Shown piece after piece: positions 2,828 through 43,738 of a DNA stretch of 51,878 nucleotides. Under the pieces are notes generated by a model that was given only the letters and a program-made list of their open reading frames with translations, searched no databases and was not told where the DNA came from. The translations under genes were made by a program, and so were the position numbers. The DNA lies in assembly GCA_038065775.1 (NCBI GenBank), contig JBBTQE010000019.1:1-51878 (forward strand), read 5' to 3'. The DNA is from Patescibacteria group bacterium (GTDB lineage Bacteria; Patescibacteriota; Patescibacteriia; Magasanikbacterales; GWA2-37-8). Within the stretch, counting starts at the first letter, position 1, and each line of letters opens with the position of its first letter.

Positions 2828-5059
2828 TTATTGTACATTAGCGATTTTAACTTGGCCGCTGGCGATCCACTTCGCCAAATTATTCGGCTCATTAAATCTA
2901 TTTTTGTAATCTTTGTTTCCAAGAGTCACGATAACAAATTTTTTCTTTGTTTTTCTTCCTTCCACCAACATCACCATTACAGATCCAGCCTCGTCAGTAT
3001 AGCCGGTTTTGCTTGCCAGTATTCTATAATTTCTGCCGGATAATTTCAATAACTGATTTGTGTTGGCAATCGTATGCAATTGAGCGCCGGCTTTGCTCGG
3101 CATTTCTTTGAATTGGTATGTTTGTTCAAACAAAGTTTTTTGCATCAAATCATTTTCAAGAATTTTTGTAAAGATTTTTAGCAAATTTCTCGGCGTTGAC
3201 TTATTACTCTCGTCCAATCCGGTAACATCGGCAATGGTCGTGTCGTCTGCGTCCCAGTTTTCCAGTCGTTTATTTATAGTTCGTATGAATTCATCTTCAG
3301 AAAGCCCGCTTGCCTGCGCGACCATTCGCGCCGTGTTGTTGTAAGAACCGATCAGCATGGCTGAAAAAAGATCCAGATTTTTTAATTTTGCGCCATTTTT
3401 TAAATTAAGAATATGTCCGCTTGAGCCGGCTATTTTTTTGTCGTATGTTGATATTTTTTTAAGATCAAAATCCTGATTTAGCGCTTCATATGCGACAAAT
3501 AGTTTTGTCAACGAGGCGATAGGACGCGGAGTGTCTATGTCCTTGCCGGAAATTATACGGCCGCTTGGGTATTCGGCAATCAAATACGCCGGAACTTTGC
3601 TCTTTCTGTAAATATCATCAACCTTTATCAAACTGTCACCCAAAAATTTATTGCGCGATGAAAGCAGGCTGCTGTTCAAGAAGATTGGTTCGCCGGTTAG
3701 AATGCCGAGAGCGGTGATTTGTTGCACGGTGATTACATTGGATTTTTTGTAGCCCATTGATTTGAAGGTCTCATTGTCTGCAATTTTTCGTTTTTTACCA
3801 TTTTCCATCACGAATATGGAGTTGCCGCCTGAAATCCTAAGGAGCGTCCCGTCTTTAAACGGAAGTGGCATGTCGGCAACAGGTAAATTTTTAATGTCAA
3901 TCAGTTTGTGCTGTTCAATTTTTAAATCACTAAAATTTTCATCAACAATTTTTTCATCCGTAATCGGATAAAGTACATTGTCTTTGTAGAGGTAAAAAGC
4001 ATTGCTTAAATCCGTTATCTGATAAATTACGCCCTGCGGAGCGGTGGAGGTTGTGTTGATTGTTGTCCCAATCGTATAACCGGCGATATCTTCAGCTGTT
4101 ATTCCTATAACTTCATCCGGATTATAGCCGATCTGGCGAAAAACCTCATCAGAAGCGAATGGCCGAAGCGTATCGTAGTCAAGCAAGTAATAAATTCCCG
4201 CGACTTTTAAAATAGAATAATTGGGAAAAGCGATTTCCGCGCCTGTCTGATAATTGTTAAGTTCAATATCCGGAATGGAAATAATTAAATCCGGATTCGC
4301 GCGGCTAAGAAGCGTGGCTTGATTTTTAAATTTGCGTTTGACGTTGTTTTGAATCAACCAGATTTCCGAGCTGGAGGCGGACTTAAGAAGTGTGCCGTTT
4401 GGATAAACCTGCGCGAACCATGTGTTCCAAATTCGCCAAAAGTTTTTATTGCCATGAAGATGCGGTGTGTAAGTATATAAAAATGCGGTGGCCCAGCTTC
4501 CGGGGATAACAGGTTCCTTGTCAATTATTGTGGTTTGGTCTTTCTTTTTTACAAAAGATTTTTCAGTGTTTTCATAATACCAACGAATAATTCCAGCCGA
4601 ATTATCAACTTGTTTTCCAAAGCCTTTGTGTTTTAAAACATTCGGGTCGCTTAAGTAACAGCCGTCACAAACACCATAACCGGTCGCCCAGTCAAGCTGT
4701 TTTTGAGTGGGTGAGTCCTCGGTTATTAAACTTTGTTCTTTTTGGAGAGTCACCAAAATATATTTTGGGTTTATTTGGTTCCTTTGCGCCGATTGATAAA
4801 TTATCTCACTCGCGCGTTTAAAAATTCCATCAACATCTTCGGCAAAAAAAGCGGCGAGGTAACTTCCTTTGGATTCTAAAAATTTTTGGATATCATCCGC
4901 GGCCCAATTAACCGTACTCTGCATTTCTTCATCGGAAATAATAAAATTCGGATTGAATTCCGATTGGGAATGCGCCGGGAAATAGGGGATGAGTAAAGCT
5001 AAGAATACAAGAAAAGCTATGATTTTGTCTTTCTTTGGCATATAGAGGTAGTATAGCAT
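2828..5059 (-). CDS. secreted multidomain D-alanyl-D-alanine carboxypeptidase (S11/PBP5-like C-terminal domain)
   Basis: 743 aa with a signal-peptide-like N-terminus; an alternative start is MPKKDK at 5041. The C-terminal domain has SxxK (ASLTKLF), SxN (SYNN) and KTG (KTGYT). The N-terminal ~250 aa is an uncharacterised domain containing the NPKYILVTLQKEQSLI motif. The central part holds about four ~50-aa repeats of the type GKKRKI..xxxFxxxGY...V..V. Confidence 0.75.
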   Translation of the reverse strand: MLYYLYMPKKDKIIAFLVFLALLIPYFPAHSQSEFNPNFIISDEEMQSTVNWAADDIQKFLESKGSYLAAFFAEDVDGIFKRASEIIYQSAQRNQINPKYILVTLQKEQSLITEDSPTQKQLDWATGYGVCDGCYLSDPNVLKHKGFGKQVDNSAGIIRWYYENTEKSFVKKKDQTTIIDKEPVIPGSWATAFLYTYTPHLHGNKNFWRIWNTWFAQVYPNGTLLKSASSSEIWLIQNNVKRKFKNQATLLSRANPDLIISIPDIELNNYQTGAEIAFPNYSILKVAGIYYLLDYDTLRPFASDEVFRQIGYNPDEVIGITAEDIAGYTIGTTINTTSTAPQGVIYQITDLSNAFYLYKDNVLYPITDEKIVDENFSDLKIEQHKLIDIKNLPVADMPLPFKDGTLLRISGGNSIFVMENGKKRKIADNETFKSMGYKKSNVITVQQITALGILTGEPIFLNSSLLSSRNKFLGDSLIKVDDIYRKSKVPAYLIAEYPSGRIISGKDIDTPRPIASLTKLFVAYEALNQDFDLKKISTYDKKIAGSSGHILNLKNGAKLKNLDLFSAMLIGSYNNTARMVAQASGLSEDEFIRTINKRLENWDADDTTIADVTGLDESNKSTPRNLLKIFTKILENDLMQKTLFEQTYQFKEMPSKAGAQLHTIANTNQLLKLSGRNYRILASKTGYTDEAGSVMVMLVEGRKTKKKFVIVTLGNKDYKNRFNEPNNLAKWIASGQVKIANVQ

Positions 5060-7862: not shown

Positions 7863-8558
7863 ATGGCGAACGATTCAGTAATTCCGGAACATATTGGCAT
7901 CATTTTAGATGGCAACCGCAGGTGGGCAAAAGAGCGCGGGTTGCCCACTTTTTTTGGGCACAGGAAAGGGATGGAAAACGCCAAACGAATTATTTTGTAT
8001 GCCCAAAAAAGTGGGGTGAAGATAGTTACAATGTTTGCTTTTTCAACTGAAAATTGGTCGCGCGCGCCAAAGGAAGTTGGCTATCTGATGAAATTATTTG
8101 AGAATTATTTGGATAAGTATTTGCTGGAATTTAAGAAAAAAGGAGTTCGGCTTGGGCATGTCGGTTCAATGGAAGAGTTGCCGGAGAGTTTGAGCAAGAA
8201 ATTAAAAAAGGCGATTGAGGAGACGAAAAATAACAAAGGGATTATTGCAAATTTGGCGTTGAATTATGGCGGGCGCGACGAGATTAAGCGGATGATTCAA
8301 AAGATAATTTCTATGGGAATAAAGGCGAGCGAGGTTGATTTTGATTTAATCAGCGCGAATTTGGATACGAGTGGTTTGTCAGACCCGGATCTGATCATCC
8401 GCACTTCTGGTGAACAGAGAACTTCCGGTTTTTTGATTTGGCAGGGCGCTTATAGTGAATTATATTTTCCAAAAGTCCACTGGCCTGCTTTTGATGAGAG
8501 AGAATTTGATAAAGCGATTGAGGAGTATGGTAAACGACAAAGGAGGTTTGGGGTATGA
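7863..8558 (+). CDS. uppS: undecaprenyl-diphosphate synthase (cis-prenyltransferase)
   Basis: 231 aa with HIGIILDGNRRWA and RTSGEQRTSGFLIWQ motifs. Confidence 0.9.
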   Translation: MANDSVIPEHIGIILDGNRRWAKERGLPTFFGHRKGMENAKRIILYAQKSGVKIVTMFAFSTENWSRAPKEVGYLMKLFENYLDKYLLEFKKKGVRLGHVGSMEELPESLSKKLKKAIEETKNNKGIIANLALNYGGRDEIKRMIQKIISMGIKASEVDFDLISANLDTSGLSDPDLIIRTSGEQRTSGFLIWQGAYSELYFPKVHWPAFDEREFDKAIEEYGKRQRRFGV

Positions 8559-9373
8559 ATTTTCTAGGAGTCAAAATCAGCGAAGTTGATTTGGAAAAAG
8601 CGCGAGAGAAAGTTCGTGAGTTTTTAGGTTCTTCAAATCAGCATAAAATTTTCACTCCCAACCCGGAAATGATTGTAAAAGCGCAGAAAGATAAATATTT
8701 TCAAGATGTCCTGAATTCCGGCGATTTGAATTTGTGTGATGGAAAAGGGTTGGAAATGTTTACAAAAATTAAACGCATTCCCGGCATTGATTTTATGTTG
8801 GAGGTTTGTAAAATTGCGGCGGAGAAGGGGACGGGTGTTTATTTGTTGGGCTCCGGCAGGGATGAAGTTGTTAAAAAAACCGCAGAGAATTTGCAAAAAC
8901 AATTTCCGGGTTTGAAAATAGTTGGGTATGATAAAGGGCCGGTGATTGAAGAGAATTGTCATTCCGAACACATTCACTGCGTTCAATGTAAACTCCGTGA
9001 GGAATCTCTGTCCAATTCGTTTGGACACGGATCCCTCGTCGGCGCGAGCCTCGCTCGGGATGACACTGTGGCTAAAATAAACGCGTGTAACCCCGACATC
9101 CTCTTCGTCGCCTTTGGCATGGGCAAGCAGGAAAAATGGATTCATGAAAATTTATCAAAAATGCCAAGCGTAAAAATCGCGATGGGAGTCGGCGGTTCGT
9201 TTGATTATATCTCCGGCAAGGCAAAACGCGCCCCTTTATTTTTACGCAAAGTTGGGTTAGAATGGATGTATCGATTGTTTAAACAGTCGAGCCGTATATG
9301 GCGAATATTAAATGCGACAGTAAGGTTTTGTTATCTGATTATCAAAAATTATATTTATGAGAAAAAAATTTAG
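8555..9373 (+). CDS. WecB/TagA/CpsF-family glycosyltransferase carrying an in-frame palindromic-element insertion
   Basis: 272 aa. The ATGA overlap with uppS suggests translational coupling. Family-typical segments include FTPNPEMIV, DILFVAFGMGKQEKWI and MGVGGSFDY. About 37 extra residues (CHSEHIHCVQCKLREESLSNSFGHGSLVGASLARDDT) are encoded by repeat copy 8957-9066. Confidence 0.75.
   Translation: MNFLGVKISEVDLEKAREKVREFLGSSNQHKIFTPNPEMIVKAQKDKYFQDVLNSGDLNLCDGKGLEMFTKIKRIPGIDFMLEVCKIAAEKGTGVYLLGSGRDEVVKKTAENLQKQFPGLKIVGYDKGPVIEENCHSEHIHCVQCKLREESLSNSFGHGSLVGASLARDDTVAKINACNPDILFVAFGMGKQEKWIHENLSKMPSVKIAMGVGGSFDYISGKAKRAPLFLRKVGLEWMYRLFKQSSRIWRILNATVRFCYLIIKNYIYEKKI
8957..9066. repeat. palindromic element, long variant, inside the tagA-like CDS
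   Basis: tgtcattccgaac...gctcgggatgaca, with terminal inverted repeats TGTCATTCCGAAC and GCTCGGGATGACA. Its 3' half matches copy 29516-29628 at 36 of 37 positions when both are read on the coding strand. Confidence 0.85.
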
Positions 9374-9815
9374 TAAAAATATTCAGATTGTATTAGATAT
9401 TCTTAAAGATGAAGTTGATGGCGATGTAGCGTCAGCTTTAAAGAAAATGACAAAAGATTATACAATGACATGGGTTGATACGGGGTTAAATGGCAAAAAA
9501 CTTTTTCCAACTACCACGCCGAATCTTAAGGCTGAATTGGAGGATGTTTATCCAATTAAGGGCCGACAGTAAGATATTAAGAATGTTGCTGAAGGAGATA
9601 ATGTTATTATGCTTGAGTTGATTGAAAGTTATCCTGATCAAAAAACAAAAAAGGTATACCGGACGCCATTAATATTAGTGCTAGAAATGAAAAATGGAAA
9701 AATTAGAACTGGCAGACATTATCTTGATCCGAAATTGTCGGACAAATATCTTACTGAAGAACAAATTGAAAAGGCATATAAAAACAACAAAGGTTCTCTG
9801 CTAATTATAAAATAA
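9357..9815 (+). pseudogene. NTF2-like (SnoaL/ketosteroid-isomerase-like) protein interrupted by one in-frame TAA
   Basis: ORFs 9357-9572 and 9609-9815 are in the same frame. The only stop between them is the TAA at 9570-9572. The joined product (...YPIKGRQ*DIKNVAEGDNVIMLELIE...GKIRTGRHYLDP) has the length and C-terminal pattern of a single NTF2-like domain. Confidence 0.5.
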
Positions 9816-28694: not shown

Positions 28695-31691
28695 TCATAC
28701 CTTGTACTGGCAAATATTTTTAAAATCGCAATATTTACACGTGTGCTGGCCCGGGGTTGCGGAAAAATTTCCGGAATTGATTTGCTCGATTGTTTTAATC
28801 AGTTTCTCTTGAAGTTTAGAAATTTCTTTTTCATTTCCTAAAAACGAAACGCGCTTGTTGTCGTTTAAATAGTAGAATGTCAATTTTCCCGGCGCGCCAA
28901 TTTCTCTGTATTCTGGAAGTTGCCGCAGGGCGATTTGGTAAATTATCAGCTGGTCCTTATCTTCGCCCTCAACTTTTTCTTTTGCCTTTCCTGTTTTATA
29001 GTCAATAATTTCAAACGAACCGTCCGGCAAACGGTCAATTCTATCTATCTGACCGCGCACCAAATAATTCCCAATTTTAATTTTAAACGACGACTCCAGC
29101 CCAACCGGAATTGTCCAATTATTTTCTTCGGATTTATAAAACTCGCGTAAAATATCCTTGCCAAGCTGGTAATATTCTTCGCGTTGGAGCTTTGTATTAT
29201 ACCAATCTTCAATCCATGATTCTTCATAAAAAACAAGTAATTTATCCAACGAAGGCGCTTTGGTGGTTTTTATCGGCGCGTTCTTTCGCGGCGCGTCAAA
29301 AAGCGAGTCCTGTCTCACGTCGTTTAACTCGCATAGCCGTTCATAAAATTTATGCATCGCGCCATGCACACTTTTTCCAAAACTAAAACTCGCGCTTCCT
29401 TTGGTTGGTATTTTCAAAATGTGCGCCAGCTTGTATTGGTATGGGCATGTGCTGTAAGATTTGATTTGTGAAAATGAAAAAACGTCTGGGTGCTGATAGA
29501 TGAAGTCGGCCTTGTTGTCATCCCGAGCGAGGATCGCGCCGACGAGGGATCCCTGTCCATTTATCGATTGAGATAGGGTTTCCTCCGGAGCTTGCACTGA
29601 ACGAAGTGAATGTGTCGTCGGAATGACAGAAAACCCCAGCTCGGCTAAAAACCTGCTGATCTTTTTCGCCCTTGCCCCTCCGTAATCATCGGCGCTTAAC
29701 AAAAACAATTTTTCTTTCGCGCGCGTTATGGCCACATAGAACAAACGCCGTTCTTCCTGGCAGTGGCTATCCCCTTCCGAGAGCTGTTCTTTAATCAATT
29801 CGGCCGGTATTTCAATTCCCTCGCCGCGTCGTCTGGCAGGGAACCTATCCTCAACCAAATTAACGACAAAAACATACTTAAACTCCAGCCCTTTTGCCTT
29901 GTGGACAGTAATAATGTTAACGGAATCAGGCGTATCTGATGGCTGATAAAGCGCGCCCATATCTCCTGATTCAAGCACGTAATGAAAGTGTTCTAGAAAG
30001 CCGACAATGTTTGGGTTTGATGTTTCTGACTCATACTCATTTACATACTCAAAAAATTCTTTTAACTGATAAATTTGGCGAATCATTTCGCGATTCCCTT
30101 TTTGCTCTTCTTTTGTTAATAATTCCAACAACCCTGTTTGTTCTAAAAAGTTATACAGAATTACAGTCGGTTTTTCAGTTTTTGATTTTTGTAAGCCGAT
30201 TTGAATAATGTTTAATATTGCGGAGGTGTTTTTTTGGCCATTTTCGCTGACTCCAAATTCGCCGGTCCGCTTTAACGCTTCATAAAACGACACACTTTTC
30301 CGTTTGGCGTTATATGACAATTTCTGCATGTCTTGCTCGTTAATTTTCCAAACCGGCATGCAGAGCAATCGGTATATTGATTGTGAATCGTAAAAATTTT
30401 CCAAGACCCTAAAATAGTTTATACAGTCCAAAACAATTGGCTGACGGTAAAGTCCGGAAGCCGCCAAAAATTCGTATGGCACGCCGGCTTTTTCCAGCGC
30501 CGCCATAAATGGTTCGCTGTGGCTATTGGCCCTAACCAAAATTGCAAAATCATCCCAAACAACATTGGAATCGTTTTCTTTAGCCCGGATTATTTCTCTC
30601 ACAACCGTTTTTACTTCTTCGTCAATAGTTGAACACATAATGTGAACAACACTTTTTTCGTCAGAAGATGGAACCTTCGATGTAAACTCGGGATGATTAG
30701 CGCGGCTAATCAATTTTTTATCTAGTTTTAATTTTACCTCCAAGCGATCGGGATTATTATTTTGGATTAACTTGTAGGCAGTGTCTAAAATCTCTTGATT
30801 GGATCTATAATTTTCATTTAACACGATTTCTTTTGCCTTGGGAAAGTCATCCTTAAAACGCAAAATGTTTGAAACCGACGCGCCACGAAACGCGTATATG
30901 CTCTGGTCGTCATCTCCCACCACCGTTAGATTTGGGTTTTCGCCGGCCAGCAATTGCACCAATTGATACTGCGCCCAATTTACATCCTGGAACTCATCAA
31001 TAAGAATGTATTTGAATCTTTTTCTCAACTTGTCGGTAATATTTTCGCGGGTTTGCAAAAGTTTTAATGTATAAAAAATCAGGTCGCCAAAATCCAGCGC
31101 CTCATTTTCCAAAAGAAGTTGGTTGTATGTGTGGTACGCATTGGCTACTTCTGATAAGCGAGTTTTTTCGTCGGTATTATCTTTATTCAGCTTGTTATCT
31201 TCCGCTAAATTCAAGTAGTCGTCCGGCGTTATCAATTCATCTTTGCATTTGTTAAAATGAGTAATCAATTCATGGATGTGCCCGGAGGGATTCCCAAGCG
31301 GACTATAATAATCCAAATTAAATTTGTCCAAATTTTTCCTCATTAACATCCACGCCTCGGATTCGGTTGCAAGTTTAAACTTATTGCTTAAACCAATGTC
31401 CAGCGCGTATTTTTCCAAAATTTTCTGGCAGAATGAATGAAATGTTGAAATTTGTAAATCAACATACCCGATCTCAATCAGATTATCCACTCGGGTAAGC
31501 ATTTCATCGGCCGCTTTTTCGGTAAAGGTTAAAGCCAAAACCTCCTCGGGAGTAGCGAGTTTTTGTTCAATTAAATAGGCGATTTTTTGCGTTATAACCG
31601 TTGTTTTACCGGTCCCGGCGCCGGCAACGATGATAAGCGGGCCATTGTTGTATTCCACGGCCTCTTTCTGGGCTTTGTTAAGAGTTTGCAT
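28695..31691 (-). CDS. UvrD/PcrA-type SF1 helicase fused to a C-terminal PD-(D/E)xK Cas4/AddB-like Fe-S nuclease
   Basis: 998 aa. Helicase motifs include VAGAGTGKTTV (Walker A), ILIDEFQDVN, VGDDDQSIYAFRGA and TVHKAKGLEF. The C-terminal nuclease has CPYQYKL...GQIDRID...IIDYKTGK...QLIIYQ...CKYCDFKNIC. The linker contains repeat copy 29516-29628. Confidence 0.85.
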   Translation of the reverse strand: MQTLNKAQKEAVEYNNGPLIIVAGAGTGKTTVITQKIAYLIEQKLATPEEVLALTFTEKAADEMLTRVDNLIEIGYVDLQISTFHSFCQKILEKYALDIGLSNKFKLATESEAWMLMRKNLDKFNLDYYSPLGNPSGHIHELITHFNKCKDELITPDDYLNLAEDNKLNKDNTDEKTRLSEVANAYHTYNQLLLENEALDFGDLIFYTLKLLQTRENITDKLRKRFKYILIDEFQDVNWAQYQLVQLLAGENPNLTVVGDDDQSIYAFRGASVSNILRFKDDFPKAKEIVLNENYRSNQEILDTAYKLIQNNNPDRLEVKLKLDKKLISRANHPEFTSKVPSSDEKSVVHIMCSTIDEEVKTVVREIIRAKENDSNVVWDDFAILVRANSHSEPFMAALEKAGVPYEFLAASGLYRQPIVLDCINYFRVLENFYDSQSIYRLLCMPVWKINEQDMQKLSYNAKRKSVSFYEALKRTGEFGVSENGQKNTSAILNIIQIGLQKSKTEKPTVILYNFLEQTGLLELLTKEEQKGNREMIRQIYQLKEFFEYVNEYESETSNPNIVGFLEHFHYVLESGDMGALYQPSDTPDSVNIITVHKAKGLEFKYVFVVNLVEDRFPARRRGEGIEIPAELIKEQLSEGDSHCQEERRLFYVAITRAKEKLFLLSADDYGGARAKKISRFLAELGFSVIPTTHSLRSVQAPEETLSQSINGQGSLVGAILARDDNKADFIYQHPDVFSFSQIKSYSTCPYQYKLAHILKIPTKGSASFSFGKSVHGAMHKFYERLCELNDVRQDSLFDAPRKNAPIKTTKAPSLDKLLVFYEESWIEDWYNTKLQREEYYQLGKDILREFYKSEENNWTIPVGLESSFKIKIGNYLVRGQIDRIDRLPDGSFEIIDYKTGKAKEKVEGEDKDQLIIYQIALRQLPEYREIGAPGKLTFYYLNDNKRVSFLGNEKEISKLQEKLIKTIEQINSGNFSATPGQHTCKYCDFKNICQYKV
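29516..29628. repeat. palindromic element, long variant, inside the helicase-nuclease CDS
   Basis: tgtcatcccgagcgagg...tcgtcggaatgaca. On the minus strand it is translated as VIPTTHSLRSVQAPEETLSQSINGQGSLVGAILARDD. Confidence 0.85.
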
Positions 31692-36889: not shown

Positions 36890-36966
36890 TGTCATTCCGA
36901 ACGCAGTGAGGAATCTCTGTCCAATTGGCCAACCGACAGAGATCCTTCGCTTCGCTCAGGATGACA
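36890..36966. repeat. palindromic element (atpD|atpG intergenic)
   Basis: tgtcattccgaacgcagtgaggaatctctgtcc-aattggccaacc-gacagagatccttcgcttcgctcaggatgaca. Confidence 0.9.
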
Positions 36967-37934: not shown

Positions 37935-37941
37935 ATAATTC

Positions 37942-38024
37942 TGTCATCCTGAACGCAGTGAAGGATCTCTGTCCATATTGTTTTGACGAACAAGACAGAG
38001 ATTCTTCGTATGCTCAGAATGACA
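37942..38024. repeat. palindromic element (atpG|atpA intergenic)
   Basis: tgtcatcctgaacgcagtgaaggatctctgtcc-atattgttttgacgaaca-agacagagattcttcgtatgctcagaatgaca. Confidence 0.9.
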
Positions 38025-39919: not shown

Positions 39920-40504
39920 TTAGATCTTCATGCTTTCTACCGCTTCTTCAATAATTTTTTTATCTTTTGTTGAATCCAATTTGCTGGAAAGAATTTTTTC
40001 CGTGGCCATGACTACTAAATTCGCGGCCTGCTCCCTTACTTCGTTAATTGATTCATCGCGTTCGGCTTTGATATTTTTTCTTGCCTGCTCCACAAGCAAT
40101 TCTATGTCTTCCTTGGCTTTCACCTTCATATCATCGCCCAATTTTACGGCTTCCTGTTGGGCTTTCTCAGTTATTTTATTCGCTTCAACTTTTGCGTCAT
40201 CAACCCTTTCTTGAAATTTTCTTTCACTCATCATTAAATTTGTTTCAACTTTTCTGGAATTTTCAATACTGGCATCAATCATTTTTTGCCTTTCGGCCAT
40301 CTTTTTTGTAAGCGGTTTAAGAATTAAAAACCATAAAATCAAAGCAACCGCGATAAAATTGATTAACTGAAAAATAAATAGTGTGCCGTTAATGCCGAGG
40401 GAGGCCAGCACTCCGCCATCAGCTGCGGCTTCGGTGGCATGCCCTGCGCCCTCTACGGCTTTTTTAATAGGTTCTGACGCGTATACAGTTTCAATAAAAT
40501 TCAT
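39920..40504 (-). CDS. atpF: Fo ATP synthase b subunit
   Basis: 194 aa. A single TM helix (LFIFQLINFIAVALILWFLIL) is followed by a long charged helix. Confidence 0.8.
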   Translation of the reverse strand: MNFIETVYASEPIKKAVEGAGHATEAAADGGVLASLGINGTLFIFQLINFIAVALILWFLILKPLTKKMAERQKMIDASIENSRKVETNLMMSERKFQERVDDAKVEANKITEKAQQEAVKLGDDMKVKAKEDIELLVEQARKNIKAERDESINEVREQAANLVVMATEKILSSKLDSTKDKKIIEEAVESMKI

Positions 40505-40515
40505 ATATTTTATTT

Positions 40516-40598
40516 TGTCATTCTGAGTGAAACGAAGAATCTCTCTCTACTGGTTCTGATAATACAGACAGATATCCTTCATTACATTCAGGATGACA
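40516..40598. repeat. palindromic element (atpF|atpE intergenic)
   Basis: tgtcattctgagtgaaacgaagaatctctctc-tactggttctgataataca-gacagatatccttcattacattcaggatgaca. Confidence 0.85.
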
Positions 40599-40647: not shown

Positions 40648-40869
40648 TTACTTCAATGTGAAAACAACGACCAACGCATAAATAGCGATGGCTTCGGCAA
40701 ACGCGGCGCCGAGCAACATCGGAACGAATAATTTGTCCGATGCCTCCGGGTTGCGACCGATGGCTTGCATGGCTTTGGCAACAAGATTGCCGATAGCCAA
40801 GGCAGGCCCAAAGCCGCCGATGGCCATTGTCAAACCCTTTACCAACGCGACCACTGATTCGTGCTCCAT
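40648..40869 (-). CDS. atpE: Fo ATP synthase c subunit
   Basis: 73 aa forming a two-helix hairpin, with the polar loop GRNPE and the conserved carboxylate in AFAEAIAIYALVV. Confidence 0.9.
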   Translation of the reverse strand: MEHESVVALVKGLTMAIGGFGPALAIGNLVAKAMQAIGRNPEASDKLFVPMLLGAAFAEAIAIYALVVVFTLK

Positions 40870-40956: not shown

Positions 40957-41778
40957 TTAATGTGTTAAAGTCGGCTCTGCGCGCGTTTTATGGCTGTCTT
41001 TTTCTTCGTGGCCATGCGGCGCCGTGGACATTATGGTTAAATAAACCAATGTTAACATTGTAAACACGCTGGCCTGAATCAATCCAACCAAAACCTCCAG
41101 CATCATAAACGGCGCAGGCACCAAAAGCGCGGCGATACTGCTGATTACGGAAATTAAAACTTCGCCGGCAAAAATATTTCCAAACAACCTAAGCGAAAGA
41201 GACAAGATTTTTGCAATTTCGCTGATGATTTCTATGAGTCCTACGGCCAATTCAACTACGGCGGTAAAAATCGCAACCGGACCTTTTGTTAAACTTTTAA
41301 AAAACGTCCCGATTTGAATAAATTTGTTTAGATGAGTAAACACGCCTACGGTTATAAAACCAAAAACATGGGACGAGAGCACGGCAACGACCGCCATTGC
41401 CGCCGTAAGGTTTAAATCGGTGTTGGCGGGGCGAAGCAACATGCTCTGGCCAAGCTTAATACTTCCGGTTCCCGGCAATAGGCCGAGCCAGTTGGAGAGT
41501 AAAATAAAAAAGAAGACGGATCCGACAATCGGCAAAAAGCGCATTGTCTTTTTTCTGTCTCCGGTCACTCTGTCAAAATATCCAAGAAGTTTTTCTAAAA
41601 AAAATTCCATGAAGTTTTGCATTTTTCCGGGTTTGACGCTCAATCTCTTGCGGATAGTCAACCCTAGCACTAGGAAAATAATAATCGCCAGCCACGTATT
41701 AATAATAGTATTGGTAATTGGCAGTTTTCCAATATGAAATAGGGTTTCTGGCGCTAATGTTGGTATGTGAAATTCCAT
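40957..41778 (-). CDS. atpB: Fo ATP synthase a subunit
   Basis: It contains LSLRLFGNIFAGE with the essential Arg. The start is taken at MEFHIPTLAPE (41778). The longer track start at 41793 (MTQKT) lies inside repeat copy 41788-41852. Confidence 0.85.
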   Translation of the reverse strand: MEFHIPTLAPETLFHIGKLPITNTIINTWLAIIIFLVLGLTIRKRLSVKPGKMQNFMEFFLEKLLGYFDRVTGDRKKTMRFLPIVGSVFFFILLSNWLGLLPGTGSIKLGQSMLLRPANTDLNLTAAMAVVAVLSSHVFGFITVGVFTHLNKFIQIGTFFKSLTKGPVAIFTAVVELAVGLIEIISEIAKILSLSLRLFGNIFAGEVLISVISSIAALLVPAPFMMLEVLVGLIQASVFTMLTLVYLTIMSTAPHGHEEKDSHKTRAEPTLTH

Positions 41779-41787
41779 AGTTTTCTG

Positions 41788-41852
41788 TGTCATCCCGAAC
41801 TTGTTTCGGGATCTACTGTAATTTCAGATGCTGAAACAAGTTCAGCATGACA
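41788..41852. repeat. palindromic element, short variant (atpB|atpI-like intergenic)
   Basis: tgtcatcccgaacttgtttcgggatct-actgtaatttc-agatgctgaaacaagttcagcatgaca. Confidence 0.85.
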
Positions 41853-42217: not shown

Positions 42218-43138
42218 TTAAGATATTTTGAACAATTTCTTCGCATTTTCTGTTGTTTTGTTTAAGACCGCTTCTTCGGGAACGCCTTTTATCTCCGCAA
42301 TCTTTTTCGCCACTTCTTCCACCATCCATGGCTCGCAACGCTGGCCTCGATAGGCCTGCGGAGCCAAATATGGCGCGTCTGTTTCCACCAACATCCGCTC
42401 AAGCGGACACTTTTCAACAACTTCAAGCAAGTCCAATTGTGTTTGCGGATCGGTTTTTTTGGGCGGGAATGTGATAACGCCGGTAAAACCAAGATATAAT
42501 CCCAAATCCAAATACTGCTCGGCAATTTCCCAATTACTTGTATAGCAGTGAATAACGCCGCGGATGGTAGATTTTGTCATCCCGAACGCATGTGAAGGAT
42601 TTCTGTCGGTTGTATTTTTGGACAGAGATTCCTCGTCGCTTTGCTCGCTCGGAATGACAAGATACCGCAACAACCCAATCATTTCTTCATGCGCTTCTCT
42701 AACGTGTATGACTAATGGCAAGCCAAGTTCTTTGGCTAAATTATACTGGGCTAGGAATATCTCCTTTTGTTTTTTCAAAACTTCCTCCCCGCCAACTCCT
42801 TTCGGCAGATGAAAAAAATCCAACCCACACTCCCCTATCGCGATTACTTTTTTATTCTTCGCCAGCTTTTTGTAATATTCATAATCAAATTCTTCTTCGC
42901 GCGACTCAAACTTTGCTTCCGCTTCGTCAACGCGCGATTTAAAAAGATGGATCGGATGCAATCCGACCGTGGCATAAATATTATCGTATTTTCCCGCGTA
43001 TTCTACCGCCCGGGCGCTCGTGTCTCTTTGCGATCCGACCGCGTTCAAGATTACATTTTTTTCAACGCAACGTTTAATTACTTCGTCCGCGTCGTCTTTA
43101 TACGCGCTAAATTGTATATGGCAGTGGGTGTCTAACAT
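42218..43138 (-). CDS. TatD-family metal-dependent hydrolase carrying an in-frame palindromic-element insertion
   Basis: 306 aa with MLDTHCHIQF, IGECGLDF, LVIHVREA, VIHCYTS and ETDAPYL. About 29 extra residues (VIPSEQSDEESLSKNTTDRNPSHAFGMTK) lie between the HVREA and HCYT strands and are encoded by repeat copy 42575-42659. Confidence 0.85.
   Translation of the reverse strand: MLDTHCHIQFSAYKDDADEVIKRCVEKNVILNAVGSQRDTSARAVEYAGKYDNIYATVGLHPIHLFKSRVDEAEAKFESREEEFDYEYYKKLAKNKKVIAIGECGLDFFHLPKGVGGEEVLKKQKEIFLAQYNLAKELGLPLVIHVREAHEEMIGLLRYLVIPSEQSDEESLSKNTTDRNPSHAFGMTKSTIRGVIHCYTSNWEIAEQYLDLGLYLGFTGVITFPPKKTDPQTQLDLLEVVEKCPLERMLVETDAPYLAPQAYRGQRCEPWMVEEVAKKIAEIKGVPEEAVLNKTTENAKKLFKIS
42575..42659. 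repeat. palindromic element inside the tatD CDS
   Basis: tgtcatcccgaacgcatgtgaaggatttctgtcgg-ttgtattttt-ggacagagattcctcgtcgctttgctcgctcggaatgaca. Confidence 0.9.
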
Positions 43139-43690: not shown

Positions 43691-43738
43691 GATTGCTTCG
43701 CGGAATTTATCCCGCGCAGAGGCGGGGCTCGCAATGAC
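43691..43738. repeat. half or degenerate copy of the palindromic element (single arm)
   Basis: Read on the minus strand it is tgtcATTGCgagccccgcctctgcgcgggataaattccgcgaaGCAATct. This keeps the TGTC terminus and the ATNNC...GNNAT arm hairpin, but there is no second arm. Confidence 0.5.

Follow-up and report, generated by a model that had tools for sequence, protein, structure and literature searches.

A REP-type palindromic repeat read in frame within a TagA-family glycosyltransferase gene of a Patescibacteria member, compared with described repeat families

The in-frame insertion of palindromic DNA repeats into protein-coding genes is a kind of event already known, as is the superfamily of repeats treated here (Di Nocera, De Gregorio and Rocco, 2013; BMC Genomics 14:522, PMC3733652). 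The subject of this study is one such repeat, termed e1, which lies within a gene for a TagA/WecG/CpsF-family glycosyltransferase (hereafter TagA) on contig JBBTQE010000019.1 of a Patescibacteria genome from groundwater; a stretch of 51,878 nt (52 kb; contig positions 1 to 51,878) was analysed and is referred to as the window. The best protein relatives of the window genome are 56-70% identical and are labelled Magasanikbacteria or Patescibacteria group. Repetitive extragenic palindromic (REP) sequences of the CGTC-tagged superfamily carry an unpaired terminal tag, for which TGTC is a frequent form and CCTC is also accepted, followed by a hairpin stem that opens with A-T pairs at positions 1 and 2, and they form head-to-head dimers with the tags outside and a spacer of variable length (PMC3733652). 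The stems of families CGTC-1 to CGTC-4 measure 8-9 bp, with loops of 4-5 nt and a short tail that is mostly CCA. These repeats lie mostly between unidirectional or convergent open reading frames (ORFs), with a minority read in frame inside genes, where they contribute 20 to more than 30 residues; prominent hosts include UvrD/REP helicases, RecBCD, UvrABC and DnaE2, and no dedicated transposase accompanies the repeats (PMC3733652). Peptides tabulated for CGTC-1 include CHSRESGNP, VIPAKAGI and DSRFRGND, and for CGTC-2 RHSELVSGS, while two Rickettsia palindromic elements (RPEs) of R. conorii, RPE-6 and RPE-4, have been equated with CGTC-1 and CGTC-4, respectively (PMC3733652). As summarized in two subsequent sources, RPEs occur in frame in housekeeping genes that are unrelated to one another, at sites that the fold of the protein can accommodate (Ogata et al., 2000, via PMC10969869 and PMC3733652), and the second of these sources states that in Rickettsia proteins with RPEs have been shown to be expressed. 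REPINs are inverted pairs of REPs of the GTAG type and have a cognate, single-copy gene for a REP-associated tyrosine transposase (RAYT) that is itself flanked by REPs (Bertels and Rainey, 2011, PMC3116915). [quoted passage not shown]

Judged by its sequence, e1 is a non-autonomous repeat of the REP type, composed of two TGTC-tagged hairpins in inverted orientation with the tags outside, much as in a REPIN. It is a palindrome of 109 bp (window positions 8957-9065, plus strand; TGTCATTCCGAAC...CTCGGGATGACA) that opens with TGTCAT and closes with ATGACA. The original prediction had placed a palindromic element of 110 bp at 8957; the element is real, and 109 bp is its proper length. The left arm (8957-9005) consists of the tag TGTC (8957-8960) and the stem ATTCC/GGAAT (8961-8965 and 9001-9005), which closes off an expanded loop that contains a nested hairpin (ACATT, 8970-8974; AATGT, 8985-8989), the expansion being the feature that defines a long variant of the element. 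A central spacer hairpin, GTCCA...TGGAC (9010-9026), separates it from the right arm (9031-9065), which is made up of the stem ATCCC/GGGAT (9031-9035 and 9057-9061) and the tag GACA (9062-9065). The fold of e1 as a single strand is better than that of shuffled sequences, both as RNA (-45.8 kcal/mol, z = -3.6) and as DNA (z = -3.2). T8957 is the first base of TagA codon 135, and the element spans codons 135-170 and the first base of codon 171, giving in the host frame CHSEHIHCVQCKLREESLSNSFGHGSLVGASLARDD, then T. The ORF is intact throughout, and this translation is the one originally proposed. We consider it highly probable that e1 is a REP dimer kept in frame in a loop of TagA, and probable that repeats of this kind spread in trans as hairpins.

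The host gene (8555-9373, plus strand) encodes a protein of 272 residues that matches the family profile (Pfam Glyco_tran_WecG, PF03808, E = 4.9e-49). Solved TagA/TarA chains (7mpk, 5wb4 and 5wfg) align to residues 2-134 and 171-259 of the window protein, and opposite residues 135-170, which correspond exactly to e1, they have only 3 residues. An AlphaFold2 model built with 60 homologues has a mean predicted local distance difference test score (pLDDT) of 87.7, with values of 93-98 in the blocks that flank the insert and of 47-58 over residues 131-170, and it superimposes on the crystal structures 5wfg and 7mpk with target-normalised template modelling (TM) scores of 0.90-0.91. The insert sits between a strand (121-126) and a helix (163-178), the fold is kept, and the insert itself appears as an excursion of low confidence. 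The homologue alignment and the model thus both bear out the suggestion that the segment is an insertion in a loop. Unrelated lineages have no conserved segment equivalent to it, so that a condition under which the original prediction would have failed does not hold. On the evidence of the model, e1 probably adds to TagA a floppy or disordered surface loop of 36 residues. Examples of the peptides predicted for the junctions and the insert are GPVIEENCHSEHIHCVQCK and EESLSNSFGHGSLVGASLAR. Short-read assembly can go wrong at repeats of about 100 bp, and the arrangement might in principle be a chimera of two contigs joined at a shared repeat. However, TagA with e1 is also found in two further assemblies, derived from different Hainich groundwater samples, which encode an identical protein between the same neighbouring genes on both sides and match the window with 99.75% identity over 13.6 kb and 99.95% over 11 kb, and the halves of TagA on either side of e1 are collinear with homologues. 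With gene and neighbours present in two further assemblies, an assembly artefact is very unlikely, to the point of being barely credible. One substitution falls inside the e1 peptide: residue 141 is His in the window and Arg in the cluster representative P0001 (HIHCVQ and HIRCVQ, respectively), the two genomes being near-identical.

Several further copies of the repeat are present in the window. Its terminal motif, TGTCATYCYGA, occurs 16 times where 2.2 occurrences are expected, and the family comprises seven paired elements bounded by TGTCAT...ATGACA and one singleton, giving at least eight related elements in 52 kb. Outer-end TGTC tags are found at both ends of all seven paired elements and on the singleton. 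The G+C content of the elements is 37-54%, that of the window approximately 40%. Only e1 and a second copy, e2, belong to the long variant (109 and 113 bp); the other paired elements measure 65-85 bp. Element e2 (29516-29628, minus strand) is read as residues 689-725, VIPTTHSLRSVQAPEETLSQSINGQGSLVGAILARDD, of a UvrD/PcrA-type helicase fused to a PD-(D/E)XK nuclease (998 aa; 28695-31691, minus strand). It begins right after the last PcrA-homologous residues (SRFLAELGFS, followed by VIP...) and ends before the nuclease domain (738-995), and the linker segment in which it lies has 73 residues in the window versus mostly 57-58 among 120 homologues. Five small indels separate e1 from e2, and their identity over the full length is 86%. 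The match of 36 out of 37 nt between the end of e1 and the helicase copy, to which the original prediction had drawn attention, was recovered (29516-29552, minus strand; one mismatch, 0.00 such matches expected from 100 shuffles), and complementarity to 29516-29559 reaches 95% over the 44 nt of 9022-9065. Equally sound was its observation on reading frames: the 3' halves of both elements are read as GSLVGA(S/I)LARDD, and the 5' halves are in different frames (CHSEHIHCVQCKL in e1 versus VIPTTHSLRSVQAPEE in e2). A different kind of insertion is found in one orthologue of this host, the helicase homologue P0200 (1344 aa), in which Pfam Hint and intein-splicing domains mark an inserted intein.

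The third copy within a gene is e7, a short element of 85 bp (42575-42659, minus strand) that is read as VIPSEQSDEESLSKNTTDRNPSHAFGMT inside a TatD protein (ORF 42218-43138, minus strand). The structure 1j6o aligns with this protein to residue 163 and again from residue 191, with no gap on the 1j6o side, and e7 accordingly adds 27-28 residues. The host frame is open through all three in-gene copies, which occupy a surface loop of TagA, the helicase-nuclease linker and a loop of TatD, and Pfam matches extend across all three hosts. The stable hairpin that e1 would form as RNA, with the folding energy given above, could be taken to favour removal or skipping of the element after transcription, by RNA processing or translational bypassing, such that the mature TagA would lack the insert. 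Against this, the borders of e1 have neither a stop codon nor matched take-off and landing codons, exact excision of 109 nt would shift the frame, and an open frame in all three in-gene copies would be needless if the elements were removed. A scan of the whole window against Rfam 15 at the gathering score likewise returned no match, and hence no family, intron or ribozyme; a tRNA scan of the window found nothing. We regard removal or skipping as highly improbable.

The conserved part of the repeat is its arm, which consists of TGTC followed by a hairpin of the form A-T-Y-C-Y / G-A / R-C / G-N-A / G-Y / G-A / R-G-R-A-T, that is, a 5-bp stem, a tandem G.A, two G-C pairs and a GNA loop. The GNA-loop core resembles the very stable d(GCGNAGC) mini-hairpin. 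When this 26-nt pattern was scanned against one genome per species, at least 120 loci were found, with 145 arms among the matches listed. These listed matches come from Acidobacteriota, Chloroflexota, Nitrospirota, Bacteroidota, Firmicutes, Planctomycetota, Gemmatimonadota, Proteobacteria, several groups of the candidate phyla radiation (CPR) and a Nanoarchaeota bin, and the genomes concerned (L004-L123) vary widely in G+C content and include gut Bacteroidales and Lachnospiraceae. Inverted doublets with the tags outside account for 79 of the 145 listed arm matches and have total lengths of 63-216 bp, the middle part being variable. Three pairs of positions that the pattern leaves free are Watson-Crick pairs in 141, 142 and 142 of the 145 arms listed, alternating between T-A and C-G, and the central loop base is free to vary. 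In the dimers of the window the two arms are unlike each other (for example, ATTCC/GGAAT and ATCCT/AGGAT) and each is complementary to itself. The covariation within arms, together with the self-complementarity of unlike arms, indicates that the constrained unit is the arm hairpin, as in REPs. Whole elements also fold as one long hairpin, with z from -3 to -6 for intact copies. The long variant was traced with a 29-mer to at least 118 metagenome contigs of 29-64% G+C; among the matches listed, 6 of 84 complete copies lie deep within long ORFs.

It might be argued that the e1 segment is no mobile DNA at all, and is instead a functional loop specific to the lineage, encoded by DNA that is palindromic by chance. 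The same TagA loop is long in many orthologues, and a peptide rich in Cys and His could suggest metal binding. This argument is already contradicted by the data: the same DNA element turns up elsewhere in the window, both in genes unrelated to tagA and in intergenic spacers, its arm motif recurs in genomes of many phyla, and the metagenomic copies of the long variant are mostly outside long ORFs. Nor is the peptide the conserved thing, given the different frames of the 5' halves of e1 and e2, and at the TagA site orthologues have unrelated peptides or nothing. A functional loop of this kind is therefore very unlikely.

Many orthologues carry repeats in the TagA loop as well. The loop, delimited by GYDKGP and (D/E)ILFVAFG, was surveyed in 101 parsed homologues of 51-70% identity; its length ranges from 21 to 82 residues with a mode of 24, and many orthologues are without the e1 segment. 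Inserts of the e1 family (CHSE[RQH]SEESL...[QRN]DD) are present in P0006, P0008, P0025, P0054 and P0061, and probable remnants of it in P0042, P0092 and P0102. A long-variant insert (HIRFAQCKLR) is found in P0105, and the same motif also occurs within the CHCEE-type insert of P0014. Elsewhere the loop holds palindromic peptides unrelated to e1, namely CHSRQSGNP...HGND, NPTLYPSPYRGGS...SPPIRGRTEEG, CHCEE...RND and VIARSETTKQ. The DNA of four orthologues contains TGTCAT...ATGACA dimers whose start points lie a few codons apart, and in one filled and empty pair (P0022 with a dimer, P0020 with none; 87% protein and 85% DNA identity) the gap falls exactly at the loop. When 102 orthologues, their loops masked, are ordered by neighbour joining (220 columns, a weak tree), inserts of the same family come out scattered, and a single clade has different families and empty sites intermingled. 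A single ancient insertion in TagA is disfavoured by this pattern, which, weak as the tree is, suggests repeated insertion events. A second hot spot in TagA lies between NLCDG and G(V/I)DFML, where repeat-derived in-frame inserts add 9-41 residues (for example, P0013, P0030, P0084, P0095 and P0120); that of P0095 is a copy of the e1 family (CHSEHSEES...LRMT). In the helicase, other tagged-repeat peptides occupy the linker in about ten homologues. By their sequences, the TagA loop and the helicase linker are recurrent, permissive REP sites in Patescibacteria orthologues.

These surveys also bear on whether TagA, along with the helicase and TatD, has been functionally damaged by insertion, in which case the genes would be decaying or inactive and their frames open by accident. 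The TagA insert is long, with 36 residues where solved chains have 3, the model gives it no confident structure, and its translation is read from the DNA sequence. Patescibacteria genomes are reduced, and gene loss is common in them. On the other side, window TagA retains 49 invariant columns of the family, the protein is identical in three assemblies, all three in-gene copies are open with fully conserved domains on either side, and dozens of orthologues have comparable inserts in the same loop with their ORFs intact. Damage to the host genes is in our judgement unlikely.

Some TagA orthologues depart from the window protein in other ways. In P0010, P0021, P0038, P0110 and P0112 the loop after GYDKGP holds peptides similar to NIQYPISNIQS or NFQFPISNFQS, which at the protein level resemble translated short tandem DNA repeats. 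In four Patescibacteria proteins (P0008, P0011, P0051 and P0081; 423-452 aa) TagA forms a fusion with a NUDIX domain. As a query in protein searches, the insert peptide gave no word-sharing candidates, and an exhaustive search returned only 3 weak matches, the 43-residue query having little power. In the protein P0122 (1494 aa), 17 stretches are weakly similar to residues 2-16 of this query (ENCHSEHIHCVQCKL); it is probably an unrelated repeat protein rich in Cys and His.

Most of the surviving copies in the window sit between genes that share a transcription unit. In the F1Fo ATP synthase operon, which lies on the minus strand, e3 to e6 fill four intergenic spacers. The short elements e3 (77 bp, 36890-36966) and e4 (83 bp, 37942-38024) occupy the atpG-atpD and atpA-atpG spacers, respectively, and the decayed short element e5 (83 bp, 40516-40598) lies between atpE (40648-40869) and atpF (39920-40504). 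The outer end of e4, TTCAGGATGACA (37935-37952, minus strand), is 7 nt upstream of the atpG ATG. A Shine-Dalgarno role for the AGGA at this end is doubtful, as its distance of 12 nt from the ATG is too great to convince. The atpI-atpB spacer contains e6 (41788-41852), a 65-bp dimer of a different family that is similar to CGTC-2, each arm being made up of TGTC, an 8-bp stem (ATCCCGAA/TTCGGGAT) and a 5-nt loop. The right arm of a Nanoarchaeota copy, L075, matches that of e6 nearly exactly. The outer tag of e6, ATGACA (41788-41793, minus strand), provides the first ATG of the longest atpB ORF (40957-41793, MTQKTMEFHIP...), and the annotated start of atpB may thus be repeat-derived, the alternative being a second Met five codons downstream. 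The singleton, a TGTC-tagged hairpin of another subfamily (TGTCATTGCGAG...CGAAGCAATC; 43692-43738, minus strand), is found in the spacer between a CvpA-like gene and metG.

Closer to e1, two small ORFs in the tagA-gltX interval (9357-9572, 71 aa; 9609-9815, 68 aa) have no Pfam match; both are present in L001 and L002 and missing from the syntenic locus L003. A D-Ala-D-Ala carboxypeptidase-like gene at 2828-5059 is a single ORF of 743 aa in the window and is split into two gene calls (509 and 231 aa) in L001, a sister assembly. This assembly is 99.75% identical to the window, with 2 gaps, and the split call may reflect a frameshift at the level of the strain or a difference in gene calling.

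The history that would account for these observations is as follows. The repeats probably spread as single-stranded hairpin DNA that is processed by an enzyme acting in trans, a proposal founded on the Watson-Crick covariation of the arms, the d(GCGNAGC)-type core and the absence of a target-site duplication at the flanks of any of the seven paired copies. Insertions into genes would survive only if they were in frame, free of stop codons and placed in a tolerant loop or linker, and small compensating indels would later have confined the frame agreement of e1 and e2 to their 3' halves. TagA would be read through e1, and the enzyme would bear the additional loop of 36 residues, probably disordered, with no gain of function required. 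The intergenic copies of the atp operon would be co-transcribed and, by analogy with proposals for other REPs, may act as RNA hairpins.

A number of observations weigh against this account. The nearest relative of the window TagA is only about 70% identical, an empty site that is strictly isogenic was not seen, and the native loop looks partly replaced, not cleanly interrupted. From the open frame, and from that only, we infer that the TagA mRNA would be translated straight through e1. Across the seven paired elements, 13 of 42 reading frames are open, which is near the chance level; the idea that the elements are built to be coding is rejected on this ground, and the open frames of the in-gene copies are most readily attributed to selection on the host genes rather than to an element designed to be coding. 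The search for a mobilising enzyme in the 52-kb window was negative, as Pfam scans of essentially all ORFs gave only an XerC/D-like integrase, and no gene family is enriched beside the elements at the 120 loci listed from other genomes; the ORF clusters around those elements represent only common families of paralogues (luciferase-like, SDR, AhpC and response regulators). Elements e1-e5 and e7, finally, do not appear to belong to the four described CGTC families, having a 5-bp stem, a tandem G.A, 2 bp, a GNA loop and the tail CTC in place of CCA.

A more far-reaching proposal can be put forward only tentatively, and we would not call it probable: that tagged REP dimers are a pervasive and recurrent source of variation in protein length in Patescibacteria, inserted in a site-directed manner, and that the arm is the substrate of a conserved enzyme of single-stranded DNA. 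Repeated hits on the TagA loop and the helicase linker by REP families that replace one another in one clade would mean site-directed insertion, for example through homing to remnants of earlier REPs or to a local structure of the DNA, and not simply that the sites tolerate inserts. The arm, with its d(GCGNAGC)-type core and its conservation across Patescibacteria, Acidobacteriota, Chloroflexota, Bacteroidota and Firmicutes, would similarly be the substrate of a widely conserved enzyme acting on single-stranded DNA. The cross-phylum conservation and covariation of the arm in any event sharpen the question of which enzyme moves CGTC/TGTC-tagged REPs, and the TagA loop and helicase linker offer two well-defined recurrent sites at which repeat insertion and protein tolerance can be studied. 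For annotation, REP-derived peptides of 20-40 residues are to be expected within otherwise conserved enzymes of Patescibacteria, where they inflate protein length, give rise to 'unique' loops that are spurious and can lead alignments and structure models astray.

Beyond Rickettsia and the few other bacteria in which they are known, in-frame palindromic repeats are hereby extended to a very large uncultivated lineage. The original prediction knew of no description of the feature for genomes of this kind. The kind of event had in fact been described; for Patescibacteria or CPR genomes, the searchable literature yielded no relevant description of palindromic elements, MITEs or REPs, and a search by DNA motif and typical peptides returned only chance primer matches. 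So far as that literature shows, what appears to be new is the Patescibacteria host, the arm family with its long variant, and the recurrent TagA and helicase sites.

Among described systems the CGTC-tagged superfamily is the closest. The window elements share with it the outer TGTC tag, the AT start of the stem (TGTC-AT...AT) and the dimer layout, with seven of the eight copies being head-to-head dimers, and their dispersal over the 52 kb of the window is similar, with four copies in atp spacers, one further intergenic copy and three in frame in genes. Two links to individual families can be drawn. Element e6 recalls CGTC-2 in its 8-bp stem, its 5-nt loop and its peptide CHPELVSGS (RHSELVSGS in PMC3733652), and the inserts of the TagA orthologues P0002 and P0022 are CHSRQSGNP...HGND dimers of the CGTC-1 and RPE-6 type, a likeness confined to these orthologues. 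In contrast, the peptides of e1-e5 and e7 (CHSERSEES, VIPSE... and ...RDD/QDD) are outside the list of PMC3733652, and both described features and peptides set this family apart; we file it, on sequence criteria, as a further family of the CGTC/TGTC-tagged REP superfamily, apparently distinct from the four described. The arms of e1 and e2 differ further in being an expanded long variant with a nested hairpin, Patescibacteria are not among the 5 phyla covered in PMC3733652, and the distribution of the arm motif is far wider than reported there.

With MITEs the elements have in common that they are short, non-autonomous palindromes which, within host ORFs, can be translated. MITEs, however, derive from DDE insertion sequences with target-site duplications, whereas the window copies have inverted termini and a hairpin arm as their conserved unit, not a plain terminal inverted repeat; the lack of a target-site duplication at the 7 paired copies rules out identity with MITEs in the strict sense. 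The likeness to REPINs is greater, as both consist of two inverted REP hairpins that form one larger hairpin of about 70-110 bp and both are non-autonomous, numerous and without target-site duplication. No Y1/HUH (RAYT) transposase was found in the window or beside the elements at the 120 loci listed, and for this reason they should not be called a REPIN-RAYT system. Like RPEs, as far as the cited summaries describe these, the window copies are found in frame in unrelated genes at structurally tolerated sites. They represent a sequence family other than RPE-1 (about 150 bp in those summaries) in a host of different lineage and lifestyle, and at the peptide level e1 and its arm are unlike the RPE-4 and RPE-6 peptides listed in PMC3733652. 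The resemblance to RPEs that was originally proposed is nevertheless supported, and is more than an analogy, as RPE-4 and RPE-6 of R. conorii are themselves included in the TGTC/CGTC superfamily (PMC3733652).

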